Part shown: piece by piece, positions 10,686 through 33,990 of the stretch
Layout: each line of letters opens with the position of its first letter
Numbering within the stretch: position 1 is the first letter of the stretch
IMG/VR virus record: IMGVR_UViG_3300007754_000004
Coordinates: 20,413-84,412 of that record
Length of the DNA stretch: 64,000 bases
Direction: 5' to 3' (one strand)
DNA from: a virus
Made by a program: the position numbers and the translations under genes
The notes under the pieces: generated by a model
What the model saw: only the letters and a program-made list of their open reading frames with translations
Database searches by the model: none
What the model was told of the DNA's origin: nothing

Positions 10686-10712
10686 TATACGAACTTGCTC
10701 GAAAAACTTACC
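10686..10712 (-). promoter_or_regulatory. putative promoter, class A (ECF-like)
   Basis: GGTAAG-N14-TCGTATA. Confidence 0.6.
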
Positions 10713-13340: not shown

Positions 13341-13367
13341 TATACGAACGAGGTCCCCATTATTGCC
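13341..13367 (-). promoter_or_regulatory. putative promoter, class A
   Basis: GGCAAT-N14-TCGTATA. Confidence 0.55.
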
Positions 13368-14775
13368 GGCTCTTGTGGAGGATCATGTACACCGTATTGA
13401 TCCGAGTGCCTGATTCAAGGAAAGACTCAGGGGGGAGATCGGTGAAGAGATGCCCCCACCGGGACTTCTGACTCTTCGCCCAGGCCCGGAACCGCTTGTG
13501 CTTCGCGGTGGTGCCCAGGTCCGCGGAGATAGGCAGCACCGCGACCAGAGTGCCCCCCGGAGCCAGGAAGTCAAAGGCGTGGGTGACGTGCTCCATCCAG
13601 TGAGTCCCGTAGAACGGGGGGTTCATCACCACATGGGTGTAGATCGGATTGGCGGGGAGGTTCAGGAAGTTCGCCGGAATCACGGTGAGGCGAGGATTGT
13701 TGATCCCCTCCAGGGCAGAGACGCGGTCAGGATGAATCTCCACCGCGTCCACCTGACCGGCACCCTGACTCAGAAGATGGCGGACGATATGACCCGTTCC
13801 AGCGGACGGCTCCAACACCCGGGAGCCTTCGGAAAAGCGAACCCGATCGAGGATCTTCCCCACGACCGGGCTCGGAGTCGGGTAGAAGCTGAGATTCTTT
13901 GCGGGGAGGCCCGCCTTGGTCTTGAGGCTGTCCGCCGTGTCCCCACGAGGAGCCGCGTCCGGGAGAACCTCCCCGTAGTAGTCCGCCAGGACTTGATTGG
14001 CCTTCTCGACCAGATCATCCCGCCGGAACCAGAGGTGTGCGTTCCCATTCTTGAAACACCGCACGCGGAAATAGGGAGTCTCCGCGTAGGACTGTCGGGG
14101 GTTGTAGCCCCGGCCCCGGGTTTCCTCGATCGCCTTGGTCAGGGCACCGGGCTCCGGCTTCTTGCCGTCCAAGACAGCGAAGACACGCTCGATATCCGCC
14201 ATCGTGTCCCGCATCCCGGAGTGGTAATTCCACGACCCCCACGAGTCGAACACGTTGGTCAGAATGATCCGGGTCCCGAGCTTGAACCCGTCGTGAGACT
14301 TGAACCTCCGATCCAAGTGCGTGAAAGCTCTGGCGAGCCCACGCTGAAAGATGAGGTTGGCGTCTGAGAGCAGGCTCTCAAGAATCCCCCGAACGTTGTC
14401 CACCGTGACCTCAGGCACGTCCCCACAGAGATCCTTCTCCAGGTCTTCCTTCGCCTTCCGGTCCATCAGGGTCCCCATCCCTGTCAAGACGACGAGGTTC
14501 TTCCAGACACGGGCGTCCACGTACTTACGCCACACGTCCAGGGACGCCCCCGGATCGAACTGCTGGAAGAGGCGACGATAGGCCCCATCCTCAGAGCGGT
14601 CGCGGAGGGCAAAGACGGCAGCCCCGTGAGCCTCCCGGGCGATCACTGCTGCCTCATCCACCATGTCATGACCCGCCTGGATCATCTCCACAGCTCGCCG
14701 CATCCTCTCAATGGAGGCATCGCGGGCAGCCACGATCCGAACGATCGTAGTCCGGGGGATAAGCTCCTGATCCAC
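13360..14775 (-). CDS. DUF4942-domain, class I SAM-dependent (amino/N6-type) DNA methyltransferase
   Basis: FYPTP, VLEPSAGTG, AVEI and VVMNPPF motifs; N-terminal YFRVRCFKNGNAHLWF..DLVEKANQVLA typical of DUF4942. Confidence 0.85.
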   Translation of the reverse strand: MDQELIPRTTIVRIVAARDASIERMRRAVEMIQAGHDMVDEAAVIAREAHGAAVFALRDRSEDGAYRRLFQQFDPGASLDVWRKYVDARVWKNLVVLTGMGTLMDRKAKEDLEKDLCGDVPEVTVDNVRGILESLLSDANLIFQRGLARAFTHLDRRFKSHDGFKLGTRIILTNVFDSWGSWNYHSGMRDTMADIERVFAVLDGKKPEPGALTKAIEETRGRGYNPRQSYAETPYFRVRCFKNGNAHLWFRRDDLVEKANQVLADYYGEVLPDAAPRGDTADSLKTKAGLPAKNLSFYPTPSPVVGKILDRVRFSEGSRVLEPSAGTGHIVRHLLSQGAGQVDAVEIHPDRVSALEGINNPRLTVIPANFLNLPANPIYTHVVMNPPFYGTHWMEHVTHAFDFLAPGGTLVAVLPISADLGTTAKHKRFRAWAKSQKSRWGHLFTDLPPESFLESGTRINTVYMILHKSRQ

Positions 14776-26737: not shown

Positions 26738-26764
26738 GGTAATTTCCAGGGGCCAGATCGTATG
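26738..26764 (+). promoter_or_regulatory. putative promoter, class A
   Basis: GGTAAT-N14-TCGTATG, back-to-back with a class B motif. Confidence 0.55.
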
Positions 26765-27040
26765 ACCCAGCAACCGGAGTAGATAAATGAGTCTCTTCCT
26801 TTCCCTGGTCGTCGGGGCTACCCTGCTCGCCATCCTCCTCGCGGGCTCCCTAAAGCAGAAGCCACGGAAGCCGCCCCCCCTCGCCCTGGTAGGACCAGCC
26901 CCGTACATCGGGCCGGCGACCCACACCCACTCCTCAATGGGGACTCCCTACGGGAAGGAGCTGCCCTGGCAGGAAGCCACCCCGGACGGACACCTCGCGT
27001 GGGCTCACGTCCTGCTGGGCTCCGCTCCGCTGGATGAAGG

Positions 27041-27215
27041 AGCGGGCTACTTCCACAACGTCGGCCACGAAGCTGTCGTGCTGAAGACGGATCTCTCGCC
27101 GGAGCTGGTGGCAGCGTCCATCGCAACCACCTCTGGGCTTCAGGGGCAGGTGCGACGCAGCGGATCCTACCCGAACACCTACCGCTGGATCAGCTACGAG
27201 GTCTCCTCGACGGAG
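27041..27215 (+). repeat. 175-bp direct repeat, left copy
   Basis: agcgggctac...tcgacggag identical to 29974..30148 except G27157 vs A30090. Confidence 0.97.
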
Positions 27216-27254
27216 TCGGACGACTGCTCCATGGAGTGTGTATCCGAAGGTCTC

Positions 27255-28358
27255 TTACCAACCGAGCGAGAGTTGACCTCCAATGCCCTTTCGCACCACT
27301 TTTCCGGTTCTCCGCCGCTCCAAGGCCACCAGCACCGCTTCCCCAAGCCGCCGAGCCAAGAGGGGGGGCACGGCATTTCCCACTTGGTGGGCAGTTGGTA
27401 CAGTCTTGCCAACAAAGATGAAATCGTCGGGGAAGCTCTGAAGACGAGCGGCCTCACGCATGGTGATGTTCCGGTCGGCCACCGGGTGGGCGAAACGGCC
27501 GCGGGTAAAACTATTACACTTGGTGGTGATGGTTCCCGCAGGCTTATCCCAGTGGAGACGACCGTAAACGCCTCGGTGGCCAGCCTTTTCCACGCTGACC
27601 CGGTGACATGGAAGACGGAGTTCCTCGGGGATATCTGCTCGGCCGCCGCCCATTGGGACGTGGGAAATACGCCGGCGATTCTGGGCCGAGATGTTGTCTC
27701 GGTTGTGATTGGGAATTCTGGATGCGGCCTCCGGACGGGCAAACGGACACGGAAGGTCGCCTATAGCGTCACGAACTGTAGACCACGACTCCGAATTGTG
27801 GGTCGGTTCCGGCCAAATGAAAGCCTTGGGGCGATCGACTCGTTCGCCGACCAAAAACGCACGTTTTCGATGTTGAGGCACACCAAAATCAGCGGCATTC
27901 AATGTGTTCACATCGGTTCGGTAACCGAGAGTTCTTGCAAATTCAATCGCTTGAGACAATTGCGCCTTGCCCCTCCTGTTGCGGATGGCGGCGACATTCT
28001 CCATGATGAAGAACTCAGGCTCCATCTCACCAACTAACCGAATGAAATCGAGTACGAGTTGGTTTCGATCGTCTTCGTTGCTTCCCCGTCGCTGTCGGGA
28101 AAAACCCTGACATGGAGGGCCGCCGACAACAAGAGCGGGGTCTCCTCGATACAAATTAGCCTTGGCGAGCAGCATGTCCCCATGTAGCGTCGAGGCATCA
28201 GCCTCCAACACATGGTCGCCGAGGTTGTGGCGGTGGGTTCTGACGGCCTCCGTGTTCCAGTCGAAGGCGGCGCCTAAGCGGAAGCCGGCTTGGAGCAAGC
28301 CAAAAGCGAACCCGCCGGCTCCGGCGAAGCAGTCGATAGCAACGGGAAGGTCGCTCAC
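27255..28358 (-). CDS. DNA (cytosine-5)-methyltransferase 2
   Basis: Motifs DCFAGAGG, GGPPCQGFS, MENV, PQHRKR, REAARLQSFPD, GNAVPP. Confidence 0.95.
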   Translation of the reverse strand: MSDLPVAIDCFAGAGGFAFGLLQAGFRLGAAFDWNTEAVRTHRHNLGDHVLEADASTLHGDMLLAKANLYRGDPALVVGGPPCQGFSRQRRGSNEDDRNQLVLDFIRLVGEMEPEFFIMENVAAIRNRRGKAQLSQAIEFARTLGYRTDVNTLNAADFGVPQHRKRAFLVGERVDRPKAFIWPEPTHNSESWSTVRDAIGDLPCPFARPEAASRIPNHNRDNISAQNRRRISHVPMGGGRADIPEELRLPCHRVSVEKAGHRGVYGRLHWDKPAGTITTKCNSFTRGRFAHPVADRNITMREAARLQSFPDDFIFVGKTVPTAHQVGNAVPPLLARRLGEAVLVALERRRTGKVVRKGIGGQLSLGW

Positions 28359-29656
28359 TTGAGCCTCTTGGTGTGCTTGCGACCAGGGATGCTGCTCGAG
28401 AACGAGTTGCTGGTCGGCTCCAATACATCACCGTCCGTGTTCATCTCGACGACCTCGTTCGGATCGCGGGACAACTCCGTCAAGATGTGAGCAGCCAGAT
28501 GAGCGGCGAATTGCGGCGGCACGGCGTTGCCAATCTGCTGAAACCTGTCGTCAAATGGTCCCTCAAACATCCAAGAGGAGGGGAAGGCTTGCAACAGGGC
28601 CGCTTCTCGGATGGACAGGCCACGGTCTTGTTCCGGATGAACGTACCGACCGCTGGCCGGATTGCGGGAGTAGCCGGTGATCGTGTTGGCAGGTCGATCC
28701 CAGAACATGCGCCCGTAAACATCACGGTAACCATCCACTCTGTCGAGGCACTTTGGACCTACGCCGGGTGGTCTTGAGCCGCCGTCCTTGGGGATTTGTC
28801 GAATCGTAGCGACGGTGCTGGCTCGGTGTCGGGTACAGGCATGCATCGGATCGTCGGGTGACGGGGAGCGGGGCCCGATGGGAGGCAGGTGCCCAATGGC
28901 GGAGCGTACGGTGCGGTAGTCAGCGCTGTCGGTCAGGAAGGGGTCAGGCATTCGGAATGGGCGTGGAGAGGCCAACACCAGGGCTCGGAATCGGGCCTGA
29001 GGTACACCAAAACCAGCAAGGTTGTGGATGCGGGCCCGCACAATGTAGTCGGGATCGAGCAATTTCTTCAGGGACTGAAAACGGTCTAAGTACTTATGAG
29101 CCAGCAACTCCGGCACATTTTCCATGACTATGAAGTCAGGGTTGAGACGGCGTGCGATGCGAGCAAAGGCGTCTACGAGGTGGTTGCGTTCGTCAGATTC
29201 CCGGCGAAGGCGCTTTCCGTGAGCGGAGAAGCCCTGACACGGGGGCCCCCCGATGAGAACCTTGGGGGCCCCCGAAACGAGGCCGAGGCTACTCAAGAAG
29301 TTGTCGATGTTGTCATCGGATGCCGCGACAACGGCCAGATCTTCTCGTCGCACCCGTACCGGCAGGTTGCGGTCGAACGTGTCGGCCGCGTGGGGGTCGA
29401 GGTCTGCCGCACCCGCCAGTCGGAAACTGTTGATAGAGCGCCCGATAGCTTCAAAGCCGGCAGCAAGCCCACCACAACCGCAGAAGAGGTCAATGACTTC
29501 GATCGGGCCGGAGGCCGGGGGGGCTTGAGGATCGAAGGCGGCGACAGCCTGCTCCGCTATCGCGCGGAGTGGATACCGAGCCCCTTCTCCGCCTTGGCCC
29601 TCTCGACTTGTGGCCAACGGTTTCGGCTGAATCTGGCTGGACGGGACAATTCTCAT
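28355..29656 (-). CDS. DNA (cytosine-5)-methyltransferase 1
   Basis: Motifs DLFCGCGG, GGPPCQGFS, MENV, PQARFR, REAALLQAFP, GNAVPP; start MRIVPS at 29656 overlaps the RHH stop (TGATG); the track extends it to 29779. Confidence 0.95.
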   Translation of the reverse strand: MRIVPSSQIQPKPLATSREGQGGEGARYPLRAIAEQAVAAFDPQAPPASGPIEVIDLFCGCGGLAAGFEAIGRSINSFRLAGAADLDPHAADTFDRNLPVRVRREDLAVVAASDDNIDNFLSSLGLVSGAPKVLIGGPPCQGFSAHGKRLRRESDERNHLVDAFARIARRLNPDFIVMENVPELLAHKYLDRFQSLKKLLDPDYIVRARIHNLAGFGVPQARFRALVLASPRPFRMPDPFLTDSADYRTVRSAIGHLPPIGPRSPSPDDPMHACTRHRASTVATIRQIPKDGGSRPPGVGPKCLDRVDGYRDVYGRMFWDRPANTITGYSRNPASGRYVHPEQDRGLSIREAALLQAFPSSWMFEGPFDDRFQQIGNAVPPQFAAHLAAHILTELSRDPNEVVEMNTDGDVLEPTSNSFSSSIPGRKHTKRLK

Positions 29657-29865
29657 CAGGGCTGCTTCCGGTTGACGGGGTCGAAGAGGGGGCGTTGTTC
29701 GGGGAAGCCGACCGCGTCCAGGTGTTGCTTGATCAGGTGATCTGCAAACGTGCTTTTCTTGCGGCATGTCTGCTCGCAATAGGCTTGGTAGCGCTCATAC
29801 TCAACAAGGCTGAGGCAGACGGTGATGCGTCGAGTGGTCTGGTGCTGTTTGCTCTCCGCAGGCAT
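29656..29865 (-). CDS. ribbon-helix-helix (CopG-like) transcriptional regulator
   Basis: RRITVCLSLVEYERYQAYCEQTCRKKSTFADHLIKQHL beta-alpha-alpha pattern; AGAGGAG SD; first gene of the operon. Confidence 0.7.
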   Translation of the reverse strand: MPAESKQHQTTRRITVCLSLVEYERYQAYCEQTCRKKSTFADHLIKQHLDAVGFPEQRPLFDPVNRKQP

Positions 29866-29886
29866 GGGTCGCTCCTCTCTCCCGGC

Positions 29887-29954
29887 AGTATAACAAGCCT
29901 GCACAAGATTGCGCAAAACATCTCAAAAGTGCGCACTCTTACGTCATAGTGCGC
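29887..29954 (-). promoter_or_regulatory. sigma70-like promoter with phased TGCGC operator-like array
   Basis: TTGCGC-N18-TATACT with extended TGn; GCGC at 29911, 29931, 29951. Confidence 0.65.
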
Positions 29955-29973
29955 TATTCGCCGAAGGAAGCGA

Positions 29974-30148
29974 AGCGGGCTACTTCCACAACGTCGGCCA
30001 CGAAGCTGTCGTGCTGAAGACGGATCTCTCGCCGGAGCTGGTGGCAGCGTCCATCGCAACCACCTCTGGGCTTCAGGGGCAGGTGCGACACAGCGGATCC
30101 TACCCGAACACCTACCGCTGGATCAGCTACGAGGTCTCCTCGACGGAG
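29974..30148 (+). repeat. 175-bp direct repeat, right copy
   Basis: Matches 27041..27215 at 174/175 positions, offset 2933. Confidence 0.97.
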
Positions 30149-30185
30149 GCCCGACGCCGGGACTTCGGAACCTACACCCGATTCT

Positions 30186-30878
30186 CTATCGAAGTCCGGC
30201 GCCTGACATAGTCACCTCGATAGCGACGTAGGTGTAGCGGTCATCCTGAGTAGGGACGCTCCCCGTAGTCACCACTAGCGTGTGGTCTCCCCGATCCCAC
30301 TCGCGGTAGACTCGGACATATCCCCACTCGACTGCGTAGAAGAAGGGGACTTGGCTGCTCTCCCAATCCCGACAACGGAAGTTGGTGAAGTAGCCCTGAG
30401 CGGAGGGGTTGCTCCAATCGCAGTGCTTCCCGGGCGTCCGGGAAGGGGTCGGGAGGGAGCGCATCCTTCCCCGGCCCTCCTTCAACCAGAGTGCCTCATC
30501 CCAGACGAAGGACTCTTCGTACTCCCCCTTGAGGGACGCCGTGAGAGCCTCGAAATAAGCCCACTCTTCGTCGGTGGATCGCTCAGGGCTGTAGAAGAGC
30601 TGGCTGTCGTTCCCAGGGTACAACGGCTCCGGGAGGAACAACCACTGAACCAGTGTCCCCCCTTCGTCGAACCTGTACTCCGTCTCCCCCGCAACCCCCA
30701 TCCGAGTCTCCTTGTACCGGAGAATACCGGACTGGACCAGGAGAGGCGGGAGGCCCTGATGGGCGTGGCGGACCAGATGCTCGGAGGAGCCCAGCGGGGG
30801 CCCCATCATGTCAAAGGTCACGGGGCCCTTGTCACAAGCCAGGGTCAGCAGGCAGAAAATCGTCGGGGGAAGTCTCAT
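30186..30878 (-). CDS. putative lipoprotein
   Basis: MRLPPTIFCLLTLA-C lipobox-like signal; class A motif upstream. Confidence 0.6.
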   Translation of the reverse strand: MRLPPTIFCLLTLACDKGPVTFDMMGPPLGSSEHLVRHAHQGLPPLLVQSGILRYKETRMGVAGETEYRFDEGGTLVQWLFLPEPLYPGNDSQLFYSPERSTDEEWAYFEALTASLKGEYEESFVWDEALWLKEGRGRMRSLPTPSRTPGKHCDWSNPSAQGYFTNFRCRDWESSQVPFFYAVEWGYVRVYREWDRGDHTLVVTTGSVPTQDDRYTYVAIEVTMSGAGLR

Positions 30879-30975: not shown

Positions 30976-33900
30976 TTACGAGCGGATAATTTCCAAACCC
31001 ACGAGGCCGCGGAGGTTATCTACGGTGCCGCTGCTACCCCCCTGCTCCAGGTTGAGGGCCTTCCCTCCGGCGGTATCCTTGATGATAACCTTCACGAGGA
31101 CCGGGACGGTCCCTTCAGCGGAGACGAAGAGAGTCGCCGCTGGACCTACGTGGACCCGCACCTGACACTCCACAACGCCCGAGACAGCGTCCACATCATC
31201 AAACGTGGCAGGTCCCGTGACCTGACAGCCGGCTCCATCTTGGAAGGAATCCTGCTTGCTAGGGCCGGCACCGTCGCCCCGCCCAAGGTCCATCCAGGTC
31301 GTCCGTCCAGGGACCTTGACCAGGATAGCAATCTCCGGAGCCCCAGGCCCGGGAGGATCGTAAGCGAAATCGTTGAGGAGAAGGCCCTTCACCTTGAGAG
31401 TGAATAGGGCTGAACCTTCGGCTGCAACCGGGGTACCCGAATTCTTGAACCCTACATCGAAGGCTCGGATGTAGATCCGGTCTCCAGTCTCCGAGCTGTA
31501 ATCCGGCTGGTCTGCGGCGATATCAGAATCCCCTGAAGGACCGGAGGGACGCATCCCGGAGCTGTAGTCGTGCTGGGGGAAAATCAACACGCCTGCGCTG
31601 GGGAAAGCAGACGCCACCCCGTCCGAGAGGGGCGGGTTCCGATCCGGGAGACCCGCGACCTGAAGCTCTCCCGCAGGGATGGAGCTGAGATGGTTCCCAA
31701 GCTGCACCCAGGAACTCGTATCGTAGCCCGAGACCGCCGTAGTCCCCGCTCGTACAGGGACGTCAATCGCAGAAGAGGCCCCGCCGAGCCCTGGCCCCAC
31801 CAGGAGAGCCTGATCTCCCGCCGACACCCCCGGGAAGGTAGCATCATAGCGGTAGACCTCATCAAGGAACCGCTCCTCTACGTCCTTCTGAGCCGTCTGA
31901 GTACCCGCCGCCGCAGTGGTCGCCGTCGCGGGGTTGGCATACACGGACTCATCGGTGCTGTGGAAGAGCAGGGTGTCCCCGTTGGTCTCCAGAATCGTTG
32001 TTCCATACACGGCCGTCGCCGCTGCGCTGTTCCCCAGGGGACGACGGATAAACATCCTGACCCGAGCATCCCTGGAGAAGCTGGGAGCCGAATCGTCCCC
32101 CGTGGGCTGGAAGCCTGTACCGGCGATCGTAAAATCAGCCTTGTCCGTGAGACCAGGAGGGGCGACCAGGGAGAAAGGACCGTCAGTGTCCCCGAGATGA
32201 GTCATGTTCATCTCAATCCGGCCTGCCTTGGACGTGCCTGTACCAGCGGGCACGGAAAAGGTCGTCCCCTGAGCGAACGGGCCCACCCAGAGGAAACCGA
32301 CGTCAGGGCCTTCCAAGCCAGAAGAAGCGGGGGTCCCGTTCCCCACTCGATAGCTGCTATCCCAGACCCCCGTCGCCTCCATCGGGAGCGACGTGATCTT
32401 CCAGGGGTTGAGCTGGGTGGACGGGATGAAGTAGCTGACACCGCTCAACACCTGGACGTTCACCGGAGAACCCGGGTCAAAGGTGTAGACCGTGTTGACA
32501 AACACGGGAGCCGCCGTGCCGTCATCATCCTCGATATGAGCACCGCGGACGATGCGGTAGCTCCCCGCCGGATCGAAGGGCGAGGAACCCGTGGAGAGGT
32601 TGGCCGGAAGCTCCACGTTGGTCCAATTGACGATATTGGCAGACCATAGGGCACTGTCCGCAGGGGAGGTGCCGTCCACCACGAGGGCCTCAAAAGCGGC
32701 CTCCGTCTTGAAGTGGAGGAGCAGGAAGGAGCCGATATCCCGGGCGTCGCCGCCAGCTACCGTGGGGAACTCGAACCGCTGACGGAAACGAGCCAATTGG
32801 AAGGTCCAATAGGTCGTCTCAAAATCGGTGAAATCACCCGCCTGAGTGAGATCCGTCCCTGCATTGAGGGCGATTGTCGGCTTGCTGAAATAGCGAGTCC
32901 GCTCTGCCGTCGGTGTGAATCGCAACCCCGTCGAGGTGCTGTAGTCGTTCAGGTAGGGCAACCTGTATCGGAAGAAGTTGTTGTCATCCCGGTTGTCCGC
33001 CGCTCCCGCGAGTGTGGGAGCCGACGCGGAGGTAGTTCCCCCGAGGATATCGAAGCCCAGACGGGTCATGCCGACCGTCGTGTCCGCCGCCGGGGGGGAG
33101 ACGCCACCCGTGGAAGAGACTCCCGTGTGCAACTCAGAGAGATCAAACTGACCTGTTGCTCGCCCAGGGAAGGTATAGGGATCAAAGCCGTCTGAAGTCG
33201 AGTCTCCCAGCGTGAACATCCCGCCCGGGTCACCGTCGCATCCAGAAACCTTCCCCGATCCAAGGGAGAGAGCGGCGATGCACCGAAGGTTCTGAGCCTG
33301 ACCGGTGAAATCCGCAAGGGTTCCTCCGGCTGGGAAGTACAGGAGAGCCAACACGCCTCGATCAGCGGGGTAAACCGCGCCGCTGACTACAGCGTAGCTG
33401 TTCCCTGATCCGGGCTTCGGCATCACCCGAGCGGTCTCGATGACCGCACTCCCCCGAGTGAACCCGCCCTGATAAGTGTCCCCTGAACCCCCGCCCGTAT
33501 AAGTCCCGTCCGCGACGTTGAAGGTGCTGTCCGTTGAGGGGTCATTCCCCGGCGTCGTGAAGCCGTCAGCGTACTTCGGGAGGACGTGGAAATAGGGGTA
33601 GATATCCGTGTCAGCGTTGGGGGCTGTTATGTCCGGACATGTCACCACACCATTAGCGACGAGGCCGGCGTCGTTCAGCTTCAGGACTCCCCAATCCGGG
33701 ACACCAGAGAACGTCAGGTAGCTGAGATCCTTCCCCAGACCAGGAGGTCGGGGCGGAACCAGAGCAGCCAGCTCGTCAAAACCCTCCTGCGTGCTGTCTC
33801 CGTCAAAGGAGCCCGACTCGTCTTCCAGAGCGATGGCTGACGCCGCGTGAGCGGCTGTCGGGTCATCAACATGCCCGCTGACGCTGGAAACCCCGCCCGC

Positions 33901-33990
33901 GCTTGGGGCAAGGGAAACAGCCTCAACGCTGTCCTGGGCAGCGAGACCCGACCCGACCTGGAGGTCACCGGGGTTGTTACTACGAGGCAT
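30976..33990 (-). CDS. virion structural protein (1004 aa, tail-fibre-like N-terminus)
   Basis: HVDDPTAAHAASAIAL...QEGFDEL motif seen in tail fibre N-termini; TGATG-coupled to the upstream virion gene. Confidence 0.75.
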   Translation of the reverse strand: MPRSNNPGDLQVGSGLAAQDSVEAVSLAPSAGGVSSVSGHVDDPTAAHAASAIALEDESGSFDGDSTQEGFDELAALVPPRPPGLGKDLSYLTFSGVPDWGVLKLNDAGLVANGVVTCPDITAPNADTDIYPYFHVLPKYADGFTTPGNDPSTDSTFNVADGTYTGGGSGDTYQGGFTRGSAVIETARVMPKPGSGNSYAVVSGAVYPADRGVLALLYFPAGGTLADFTGQAQNLRCIAALSLGSGKVSGCDGDPGGMFTLGDSTSDGFDPYTFPGRATGQFDLSELHTGVSSTGGVSPPAADTTVGMTRLGFDILGGTTSASAPTLAGAADNRDDNNFFRYRLPYLNDYSTSTGLRFTPTAERTRYFSKPTIALNAGTDLTQAGDFTDFETTYWTFQLARFRQRFEFPTVAGGDARDIGSFLLLHFKTEAAFEALVVDGTSPADSALWSANIVNWTNVELPANLSTGSSPFDPAGSYRIVRGAHIEDDDGTAAPVFVNTVYTFDPGSPVNVQVLSGVSYFIPSTQLNPWKITSLPMEATGVWDSSYRVGNGTPASSGLEGPDVGFLWVGPFAQGTTFSVPAGTGTSKAGRIEMNMTHLGDTDGPFSLVAPPGLTDKADFTIAGTGFQPTGDDSAPSFSRDARVRMFIRRPLGNSAAATAVYGTTILETNGDTLLFHSTDESVYANPATATTAAAGTQTAQKDVEERFLDEVYRYDATFPGVSAGDQALLVGPGLGGASSAIDVPVRAGTTAVSGYDTSSWVQLGNHLSSIPAGELQVAGLPDRNPPLSDGVASAFPSAGVLIFPQHDYSSGMRPSGPSGDSDIAADQPDYSSETGDRIYIRAFDVGFKNSGTPVAAEGSALFTLKVKGLLLNDFAYDPPGPGAPEIAILVKVPGRTTWMDLGRGDGAGPSKQDSFQDGAGCQVTGPATFDDVDAVSGVVECQVRVHVGPAATLFVSAEGTVPVLVKVIIKDTAGGKALNLEQGGSSGTVDNLRGLVGLEIIRS

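Follow-up and report, generated by a model that had tools for sequence, protein, structure and literature searches.

A two-methylase operon between 175-bp direct repeats splits a putative accessory gene in a very large marine phage

In a 64,000-nt stretch of viral DNA (positions 20413-84412 of the 84,412-bp IMG/VR record IMGVR_UViG_3300007754_000004; hereafter "the window"), an operon encoding two C5-cytosine DNA methyltransferases, M1 and M2, and a small ribbon-helix-helix (RHH)-like protein interrupts an open reading frame (ORF) that we call gene X, and is bounded on both sides by the same 175-bp segment of X. The carrier of this operon, hereafter the cassette, is a very large uncultivated marine phage. 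The explanation that best accounts for the data as a whole, to which we assign a probability of about 0.7, is that the cassette entered X without a recombinase, duplicating 175 bp of its target, and that filled and precisely empty sites appear to be mixed. Events of this design have been described in restriction-modification (R-M) genes as insertion with long target duplication (Nobusato, Uchiyama, Ohashi & Kobayashi, Gene 2000; Furuta, Abe & Kobayashi, Nucleic Acids Research 2010, PMC2853133). A first-pass annotation of this DNA had proposed an excisable or amplifiable methylation module captured from a bacterium; the methylase-only, recombinase-free insertion and the empty-site forms hold up in our analysis, while no donor and no amplification were seen.

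Results

Long direct repeats flank an insertion in gene X

The left copy of the target duplication (27041-27215, no strand; G at 27158) and the right copy (29974-30148, no strand; A at 30091) form a direct repeat of 175 nt with 174/175 identical positions, as the first-pass annotation had stated. The sole mismatch, G27158 versus A30091, changes residue 124 of X from R to H and leaves stretches of 117 and 57 nt of uninterrupted identity. A gapped alignment lengthens the match leftwards by 5-7 bases (to 27036 and 29967) via a GAAG(G) microhomology and an AAGCG stutter, and the earlier description of this junction, with its GAAGGA microhomology and AGCG stutter, was therefore accurate. Because the copies are identical at 174-175 of 175 positions, the duplication is recent or homogenised, i.e. 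the insertion is either young or has been kept uniform. The 84-kb record contains only these two copies, so the repeat is not a multi-copy element, and a self-BLAST of all 84,412 bp revealed no second long repeat besides a short tandem array. That array has a period of ~73 nt and occupies record positions 1-180, at the extreme 5' end and 20.4 kb before the window starts. Terminal inverted repeats were not found in the insert. The 7-nt sequence CCGAAGG lies close to both cassette ends at a frequency within chance, and was set aside.

The region is present in six marine/seawater metagenome runs (X1-X6) from two studies. Read-level evidence from these runs consists of Logan contigs built at k=31, at which a 175-nt repeat is not bridgeable, so that empty-site, circle and tandem junctions are invisible there. 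A 2,818-nt Logan contig, comprising the cassette and 30 nt of repeat on each side, was found in all six runs; the left-flank contig ends 30 nt into the repeat, the right-flank contig begins 30 nt before the repeat end, and the repeat forms a node of its own, which in runs X1 and X2 is a lone 175-nt contig of the A variant. The left junction is also crossed by an ORF. When the cassette is present, the reading frame that begins in the 5' part of X continues for another 273 codons, antisense to M1, as far as 28037, giving a 416-aa fusion ORF that public gene callers have annotated; this ORF, or a 366-aa version from a later start, is present on about 11 JGI and ENA contigs with lengths of up to 114,718 and 133,582 nt. 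The ORF itself is probably a shadow frame of high-GC DNA and not a functional fusion. We take the insertion into X to be real.

Intact forms of gene X and reduced depth of the cassette

Deletion of one repeat and the insert in silico yields a 163-aa X ORF, reproducing the earlier claim that excision would restore an intact reading frame of this length. The uninterrupted gene is present in public assemblies as exactly this product. The 90% cluster represented by the 416-aa fusion ORF includes two 163-aa members: P0252 (JGI/IMG and ENA; two contigs, the longest 15,154 nt) is identical to the excision product with the right repeat copy (H124), and P0253 (ENA; two contigs, the longest 1,544 nt) is identical to that with the left copy (R124). 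The exact product is thus found in four public contigs and in both versions of the single-nucleotide polymorphism (SNP), and a single-copy repeat at the empty site is seen at the protein level only. Furthermore, both alleles are found in the left copy of the filled form (R124 in P0250 and P0251, H124 in P0254). Each SNP allele is thus on record both with and without the cassette, and this would require recombination or recurrent mutation, provided that the assemblies are phased correctly; phasing of the SNP may be wrong in assemblies made at k < ~118. The mean depth of the repeat contig proved too noisy for estimating the proportions of the two SNP alleles.

The depth of the Logan contigs offers a second view of the same site. 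Cassette and flank depths were 19.2 and 23.0 in X1, 12 and 14.2 in X2, and 38.2 and 45.9 in X5, corresponding to ratios of 0.83, 0.85 and 0.83, and the two flanks agreed within 5% in these three runs; in run X6 the ratio was lower than 0.83-0.85. The GC content of the cassette is below that of the flanks. In Illumina data, lower GC would be expected to raise depth and not to reduce it. Taken together, the 163-aa forms in public contigs and the reduced depth of the cassette make a mixed population of filled and empty genomes likely, and we think that a real empty-site subpopulation probably exists.

We weighed these data against other explanations. The phage might have an intact X and the cassette might lie elsewhere, for example on a 2.9-kb circle that shares the 175 bp, and the k=31 graph (flank-repeat, repeat-cassette, cassette-repeat, repeat-flank) is identical for such a circle together with an empty site. 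We nevertheless consider a chimera of this kind very improbable, and take the insertion as real, because the 2.9-kb unit has no replication gene, because the depth of the cassette tracks that of the phage (the ratio to the flanks is constant while absolute depth varies threefold between samples), and because the left-junction ORF lies on about 11 contigs, of two assembly sources and up to 133 kb long, that run through the junction; moreover, the two repeat copies in the IMG/VR record differ by the SNP. Several points weigh against the preferred interpretation more directly. X is without homologues, so that its status as a gene is read from composition and signals. The empty sites are known from proteins, and DNA scans with an exact 40-mer of the repeat gave no empty-site contig, which does not imply absence since records near the window were possibly hidden from them. 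The 16% deficit in depth could be local coverage bias, and an assembler at k < ~118 can skip the loop and write flank-repeat-flank (A-R-B) from filled genomes, so that the 163-aa forms are possibly artefacts; in one ENA assembly, the cassette stands alone on a contig of 2,889 nt. Carried to its conclusion, this argument holds that all genomes are filled, that the 163-aa forms are loop-skips over the repeat node and that the drop in depth is local bias. It can draw on the repeat being a separate node at k=31, on the maximum k of 55-127 used in many public assemblies versus exact repeat stretches of 117 and 57 nt, on the lone ENA contig as the very situation in which A-R-B gets written, and on the outcome of the DNA scans. 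We regard it as possible but doubtful: the depth ratio is reproduced in three samples of two studies with concordant flanks, GC bias would be expected to act in the opposite direction, and the intact gene is carried by four contigs with both SNP versions, so that depth and intact-gene contigs are two independent lines with the same direction. The empty sites may, for their part, simply be the ancestral allele, or they may be assembler loop-skips.

A bolder proposal is that the module is a maintained reversible switch or "accordion", in which the repeats mediate repeated excision, re-insertion and amplification under a trade-off between protection from restriction and the function of X. A length of 175 bp of identity suffices amply for homologous recombination. 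Filled and empty forms are each found with either SNP allele, and experiments have demonstrated that R-M genes flanked by repeats can be amplified (Sadykov 2003, as cited in PMC2853133). Against such a switch, no bulk amplification was seen, the depth of the cassette being below and never above that of its flanks in every run measured; this comparison of coverage inside and outside the cassette gives no sign of the amplification that the first-pass annotation had thought possible. In addition, an excised circle would be unable to replicate, the haplotypes are possibly artefacts of assembly phasing, and a standing ancestral polymorphism fits the data equally well. A maintained switch is in our opinion quite unlikely, and to call it adaptive and reversible is conjecture. 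We also consider it improbable that the filled/empty polymorphism is a standing one continually regenerated by recombination over the 175-bp repeats; excision would then restore X, co-infection would re-install the cassette, and a population-level on/off trait would result that could act as bet-hedging against restriction. If that were true, this huge phage would show in nature, and open to observation, the "insert, amplify, release" life cycle that has long been hypothesised for R-M genes. Insertion of the cassette into X with a 175-bp duplication, with filled and empty sites apparently mixed, remains the explanation that we prefer.

The cassette is a coupled three-gene operon

The insert between the repeats measures 2,758 bp and holds a translationally coupled operon of three genes on the minus strand, in the order RHH-like gene, M2, M1. 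The ATG of M2 overlaps the stop codon of the RHH-like gene (TGATG), the GTG of M1 overlaps the stop codon of M2 (GTGA), and the stop codon of M1 is only 39 nt from the left repeat; no space is left for any further gene. Scans of the insert with Pfam, PHROGs and NCBIfam profiles matched the methylases only and gave no nuclease, Vsr, integrase or transposase. These scans, together with the overlapping start and stop codons, confirm the earlier view of the operon as a coupled set of a regulator-like gene and two methylases that comes without an endonuclease, Vsr, integrase or transposase.

Both methylases are full-length. M1 (27255-28358, minus strand; 367 aa), the last gene of the operon, matches PF00145 (5e-60, 204 bits) and TIGR00675, and M2 (28355-29656, minus strand; 433 aa), which is coupled on both sides, matches the same two families (PF00145 at 1e-47, 163 bits; the PF00145 cut-off is 22 bits). 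The GGPPCQGFS, MENV and GNAVPP motifs are intact in both proteins, which are 37% identical to each other and whose relatives in the PDB are HaeIII, HhaI and DNMT1. A variant of M2, P0246, is encoded on an ENA contig of 2,889 nt, approximately the size of the cassette, and carries five substitutions, among them F58I and C59S, which fall in the S-adenosylmethionine (AdoMet)-binding motif I, and also D268A/D269A; a genuine variant, a copy in decay and a low-quality assembly are all conceivable explanations.

The first gene of the operon (29656-29865, minus strand) encodes a putative regulator of 69 aa. Its reading frame reaches 29916 from stop to stop, and the ATG at 29865 is preceded by a well-spaced GAGGAG Shine-Dalgarno sequence; the 69-aa protein has been called identically on 8 public contigs, and an 86-aa version is without any record. 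Tentative assignment to the RHH class draws on Pfam matches below the cut-off (RepB-RCR_reg and RHH_5, E 0.06-0.19), on Atlas, in which the protein has a feature score of 0.94 to CopG-like RHH clusters and RHH structural neighbours at TM-scores of 0.6-0.67, and on an AlphaFold2 (AF2) monomer model showing an extended segment followed by two helices at low confidence (pLDDT 64).

The 108 nt on the 5' side of the RHH-like ATG are unique sequence. Reading by eye, we noted a candidate promoter here (29887-29916, minus strand; TTGCGC-N18-TATACT, with a TGn before the -10 element), and three boxes with a GCGC core spaced 20 nt apart (29909-16, 29929-36 and about 29949-54), the first of which overlaps the -35 element. 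These boxes are candidate operators for the RHH-like protein, and we infer that the cassette may have its own promoter. A scan with the sigma-70 consensus called no promoter in the cassette, the -35 element being weak, and the box sequence KTGCGCAM is found in only two places in the window, a count not above chance.

The methylase pair is an old unit for which no donor was found

The nearest relatives of M1 and M2 are metagenome proteins with 65-67% identity. Relatives of the methylases in IMG/VR, INPHARED/GenBank phages and PLSDB plasmids have at most 39% identity, and no donor was found in these collections. Among the listed relatives of M2, 47/119 lie on contigs exactly as long as the contig of a listed M1 relative, and this identity of size indicates that the same contig carries relatives of both. 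Furthermore, a metagenome-assembled genome (MAG) of the Kiritimatiellaeota, L012, has an M2-like gene (49%) followed in tandem by an M1-like gene (45%), and a 750-aa protein of Phaeobacter inhibens, P0207, is an M2-M1 fusion, its best match being M2 over residues 5-382 and M1 over residues 391-724. Judged from these shared contigs, the tandem and the fusion, M1 and M2 form an old and widespread functional unit with the order M2 then M1, in agreement with the first-pass annotation, which had likened the two genes to the paired 5-methylcytosine methylases of bacteria. Some 15 further listed proteins of 724-753 aa, for example in Agrobacterium tumefaciens, may likewise be single-chain fusions with the gene order of the phage pair; fusion status was checked for P0207 only.

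In L012, the pair (2-2833) directly follows a gene for a Type ISP restriction-modification enzyme, and an Xre-type helix-turn-helix (HTH) gene comes after it. This looks like a defence-island context. An M2-like gene was found in that one MAG only among 401 genomes of its phylum searched. No nuclease partner of the pair was found in the cassette, and the neighbour in L012 is a separate Type ISP enzyme. The GC content at third codon positions (GC3) is 0.61 in M1 and 0.61-0.70 in the cassette as a whole, compared to 0.71-0.78 in phage genes, and the lower value is consistent with a foreign origin. The first-pass annotation had gone further and postulated recent capture from a bacterial R-M locus by template switching or Campbell-type recombination; with no donor, best relatives at 65-67% identity and no cognate nuclease context seen, our data do not bear this out.

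Gene X and its surroundings

Gene X looks like a genuine gene by its GC3, Shine-Dalgarno sequence, promoter motif and predicted transmembrane helix. Its 5' part (26787-27215, plus strand) has 143 codons, a GGAG Shine-Dalgarno sequence and an N-terminal hydrophobic helix, with a Kyte-Doolittle hydropathy of 2.47 over residues 1-19; its 3' part (29975-30211, plus strand) consists of the repeat, the last 20 codons and the stop codon, and continues the frame of the 5' part once one repeat and the insert are removed in silico. GC3 is 0.82 in the 5' part, compared to 0.71-0.78 in phage genes and with the compositional pattern of genuine genes of this phage, and 0.81 in the 3' part. X would be a small accessory membrane protein, "membrane" being predicted from the single helix. 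Homologues of X beyond its own copies were not found, and scans of IMG/VR and JGI metagenomes gave no relatives of X or of its 230-aa neighbour, nor was a related phage found, which does not imply absence since records near the window were possibly hidden.

A promoter-like motif, GGTAA-N16-CGTAT, precedes the ATG of X by 24 nt (26738-26763, plus strand). Six copies of this motif exist in the window versus 0.07 expected, at 10687, 12078 and 14802 on the minus strand and at 26738, 39150 and 55233 on the plus strand, and they may represent a phage-specific class of promoter ahead of accessory genes; the methylase cassette makes no use of this motif.

The virus record is classed in IMG/VR as a linear virus contig and is estimated by CheckV to be 16% complete. 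A 1004-aa neighbour of the cassette (30976-33990, minus strand) belongs to a 90% cluster whose listed representative is a 31-aa fragment on a JGI contig of 261,502 nt. The length of this contig and the CheckV estimate may point to a genome of several hundred kb, i.e. a huge phage. The neighbouring giant proteins have next to no matches in PHROGs and Pfam, and the label "virion module" for the region would be based on one weak baseplate match. Elsewhere in the window, a 471-aa protein (13360-14775, minus strand) resembles, in its C-terminal 180 residues, domains of very large phage proteins annotated as DNA methyltransferases in PHROGs; it would be a further modification gene of the same phage.

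Discussion

The events at this site can be pictured as follows. A self-contained operon with its own promoter, an RHH-type repressor and two methylases would have inserted into the accessory gene X by the recombinase-free route of insertion with long target duplication, which would have copied 175 bp of X on both sides and split the gene. The pair is predicted to act most likely on an asymmetric site, with one strand modified by each enzyme, or else on two different sites. Having no nuclease, the methylases would pre-methylate the phage DNA and in this way shield it against restriction by the host. The two forms could then be interconverted by homologous recombination, either between the repeats or between filled and empty genomes during co-infection.

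Insertion with long target duplication came to light when bacterial genomes were compared, and the literature has no established mechanism for it; the present case is nuclease-free and in a phage. If the two alleles do occur side by side in these seawater samples, a single very recent event would be available in both of its states, and the microhomology of its junctions, any circle or tandem junctions and the dynamics of the alleles could be read from existing read sets. The site also shows how a huge phage may, by giving up one accessory gene, gain a double methylase that comes ready-made and self-regulated and would guard against host restriction. Its main value, in our view, is as a very young and possibly still polymorphic example in which the mechanism of insertion and excision can be studied.

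Among known systems, the closest is insertion with long target duplication itself. The survey of Furuta, Abe and Kobayashi (PMC2853133) describes R-M units without mobility genes that are bounded by direct repeats of 46-423 bp, of which an empty site has one copy, with cases spanning all R-M types and orphan methylases; membership was defined by repeats >30 bp and an insert <20 kb with R-M genes, the strict screen needing both R and M. The present site, with 175-bp repeats, a 2,758-bp insert and two M genes but no R (the orphan-M type), agrees with that definition in all the structural features tested, and shares its central likeness, namely a unit of R-M type between long direct repeats that is free of mobility genes. 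It differs in its carrier, a phage genome instead of a bacterial chromosome; in its content, two methylases and an RHH-like regulator without a nuclease; in its position within a coding region and not at a gene end; and in the apparent coexistence of filled and empty forms in the same metagenomes. The same authors put forward the hypothesis of invasion, amplification through the repeats and release, and suggested that breaks made in DNA by the R enzyme are the driving force of insertion; since the cassette has no nuclease, the latter suggestion fits poorly here.

The methylase pair itself resembles that of HgaI-like systems. Non-palindromic sites need two methylases or one double methylase (PMC12898733); HgaI has two cytosine methylase genes (Sugisaki 1991, as cited in PMC12898733), and fused double methylases are known from FokI and MhoVII (PMC12898733). 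As in such asymmetric-site systems, the genes here are adjacent, co-transcribed, conserved as a pair and fused in some bacteria, whereas no cognate endonuclease is present in the cassette, and the likeness comes from gene arrangement and not from a comparison of sequences. With the orphan methyltransferases and "morons" of phages, the cassette has in common that it is an extra unit with its own predicted promoter and with methylases lacking a nuclease, but its 175-bp duplication, the split resident gene and the apparent presence/absence polymorphism are atypical of morons. As in R-M operons controlled by C proteins, a small protein of DNA-binding type (putative here) comes first and repeated palindromic boxes lie over its own candidate promoter; C proteins are of the HTH class, in contrast to the RHH-like protein of the cassette, which has no nuclease to delay. 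With the "excisable or amplifiable module", the first-pass annotation thus applied to a new host a hypothesis already in the literature, and introduced no new principle. What is new here is the conserved methylase pair, the exact 163-aa excision product in public contigs and the depth of the cassette at 0.83-0.85 of its flanks.

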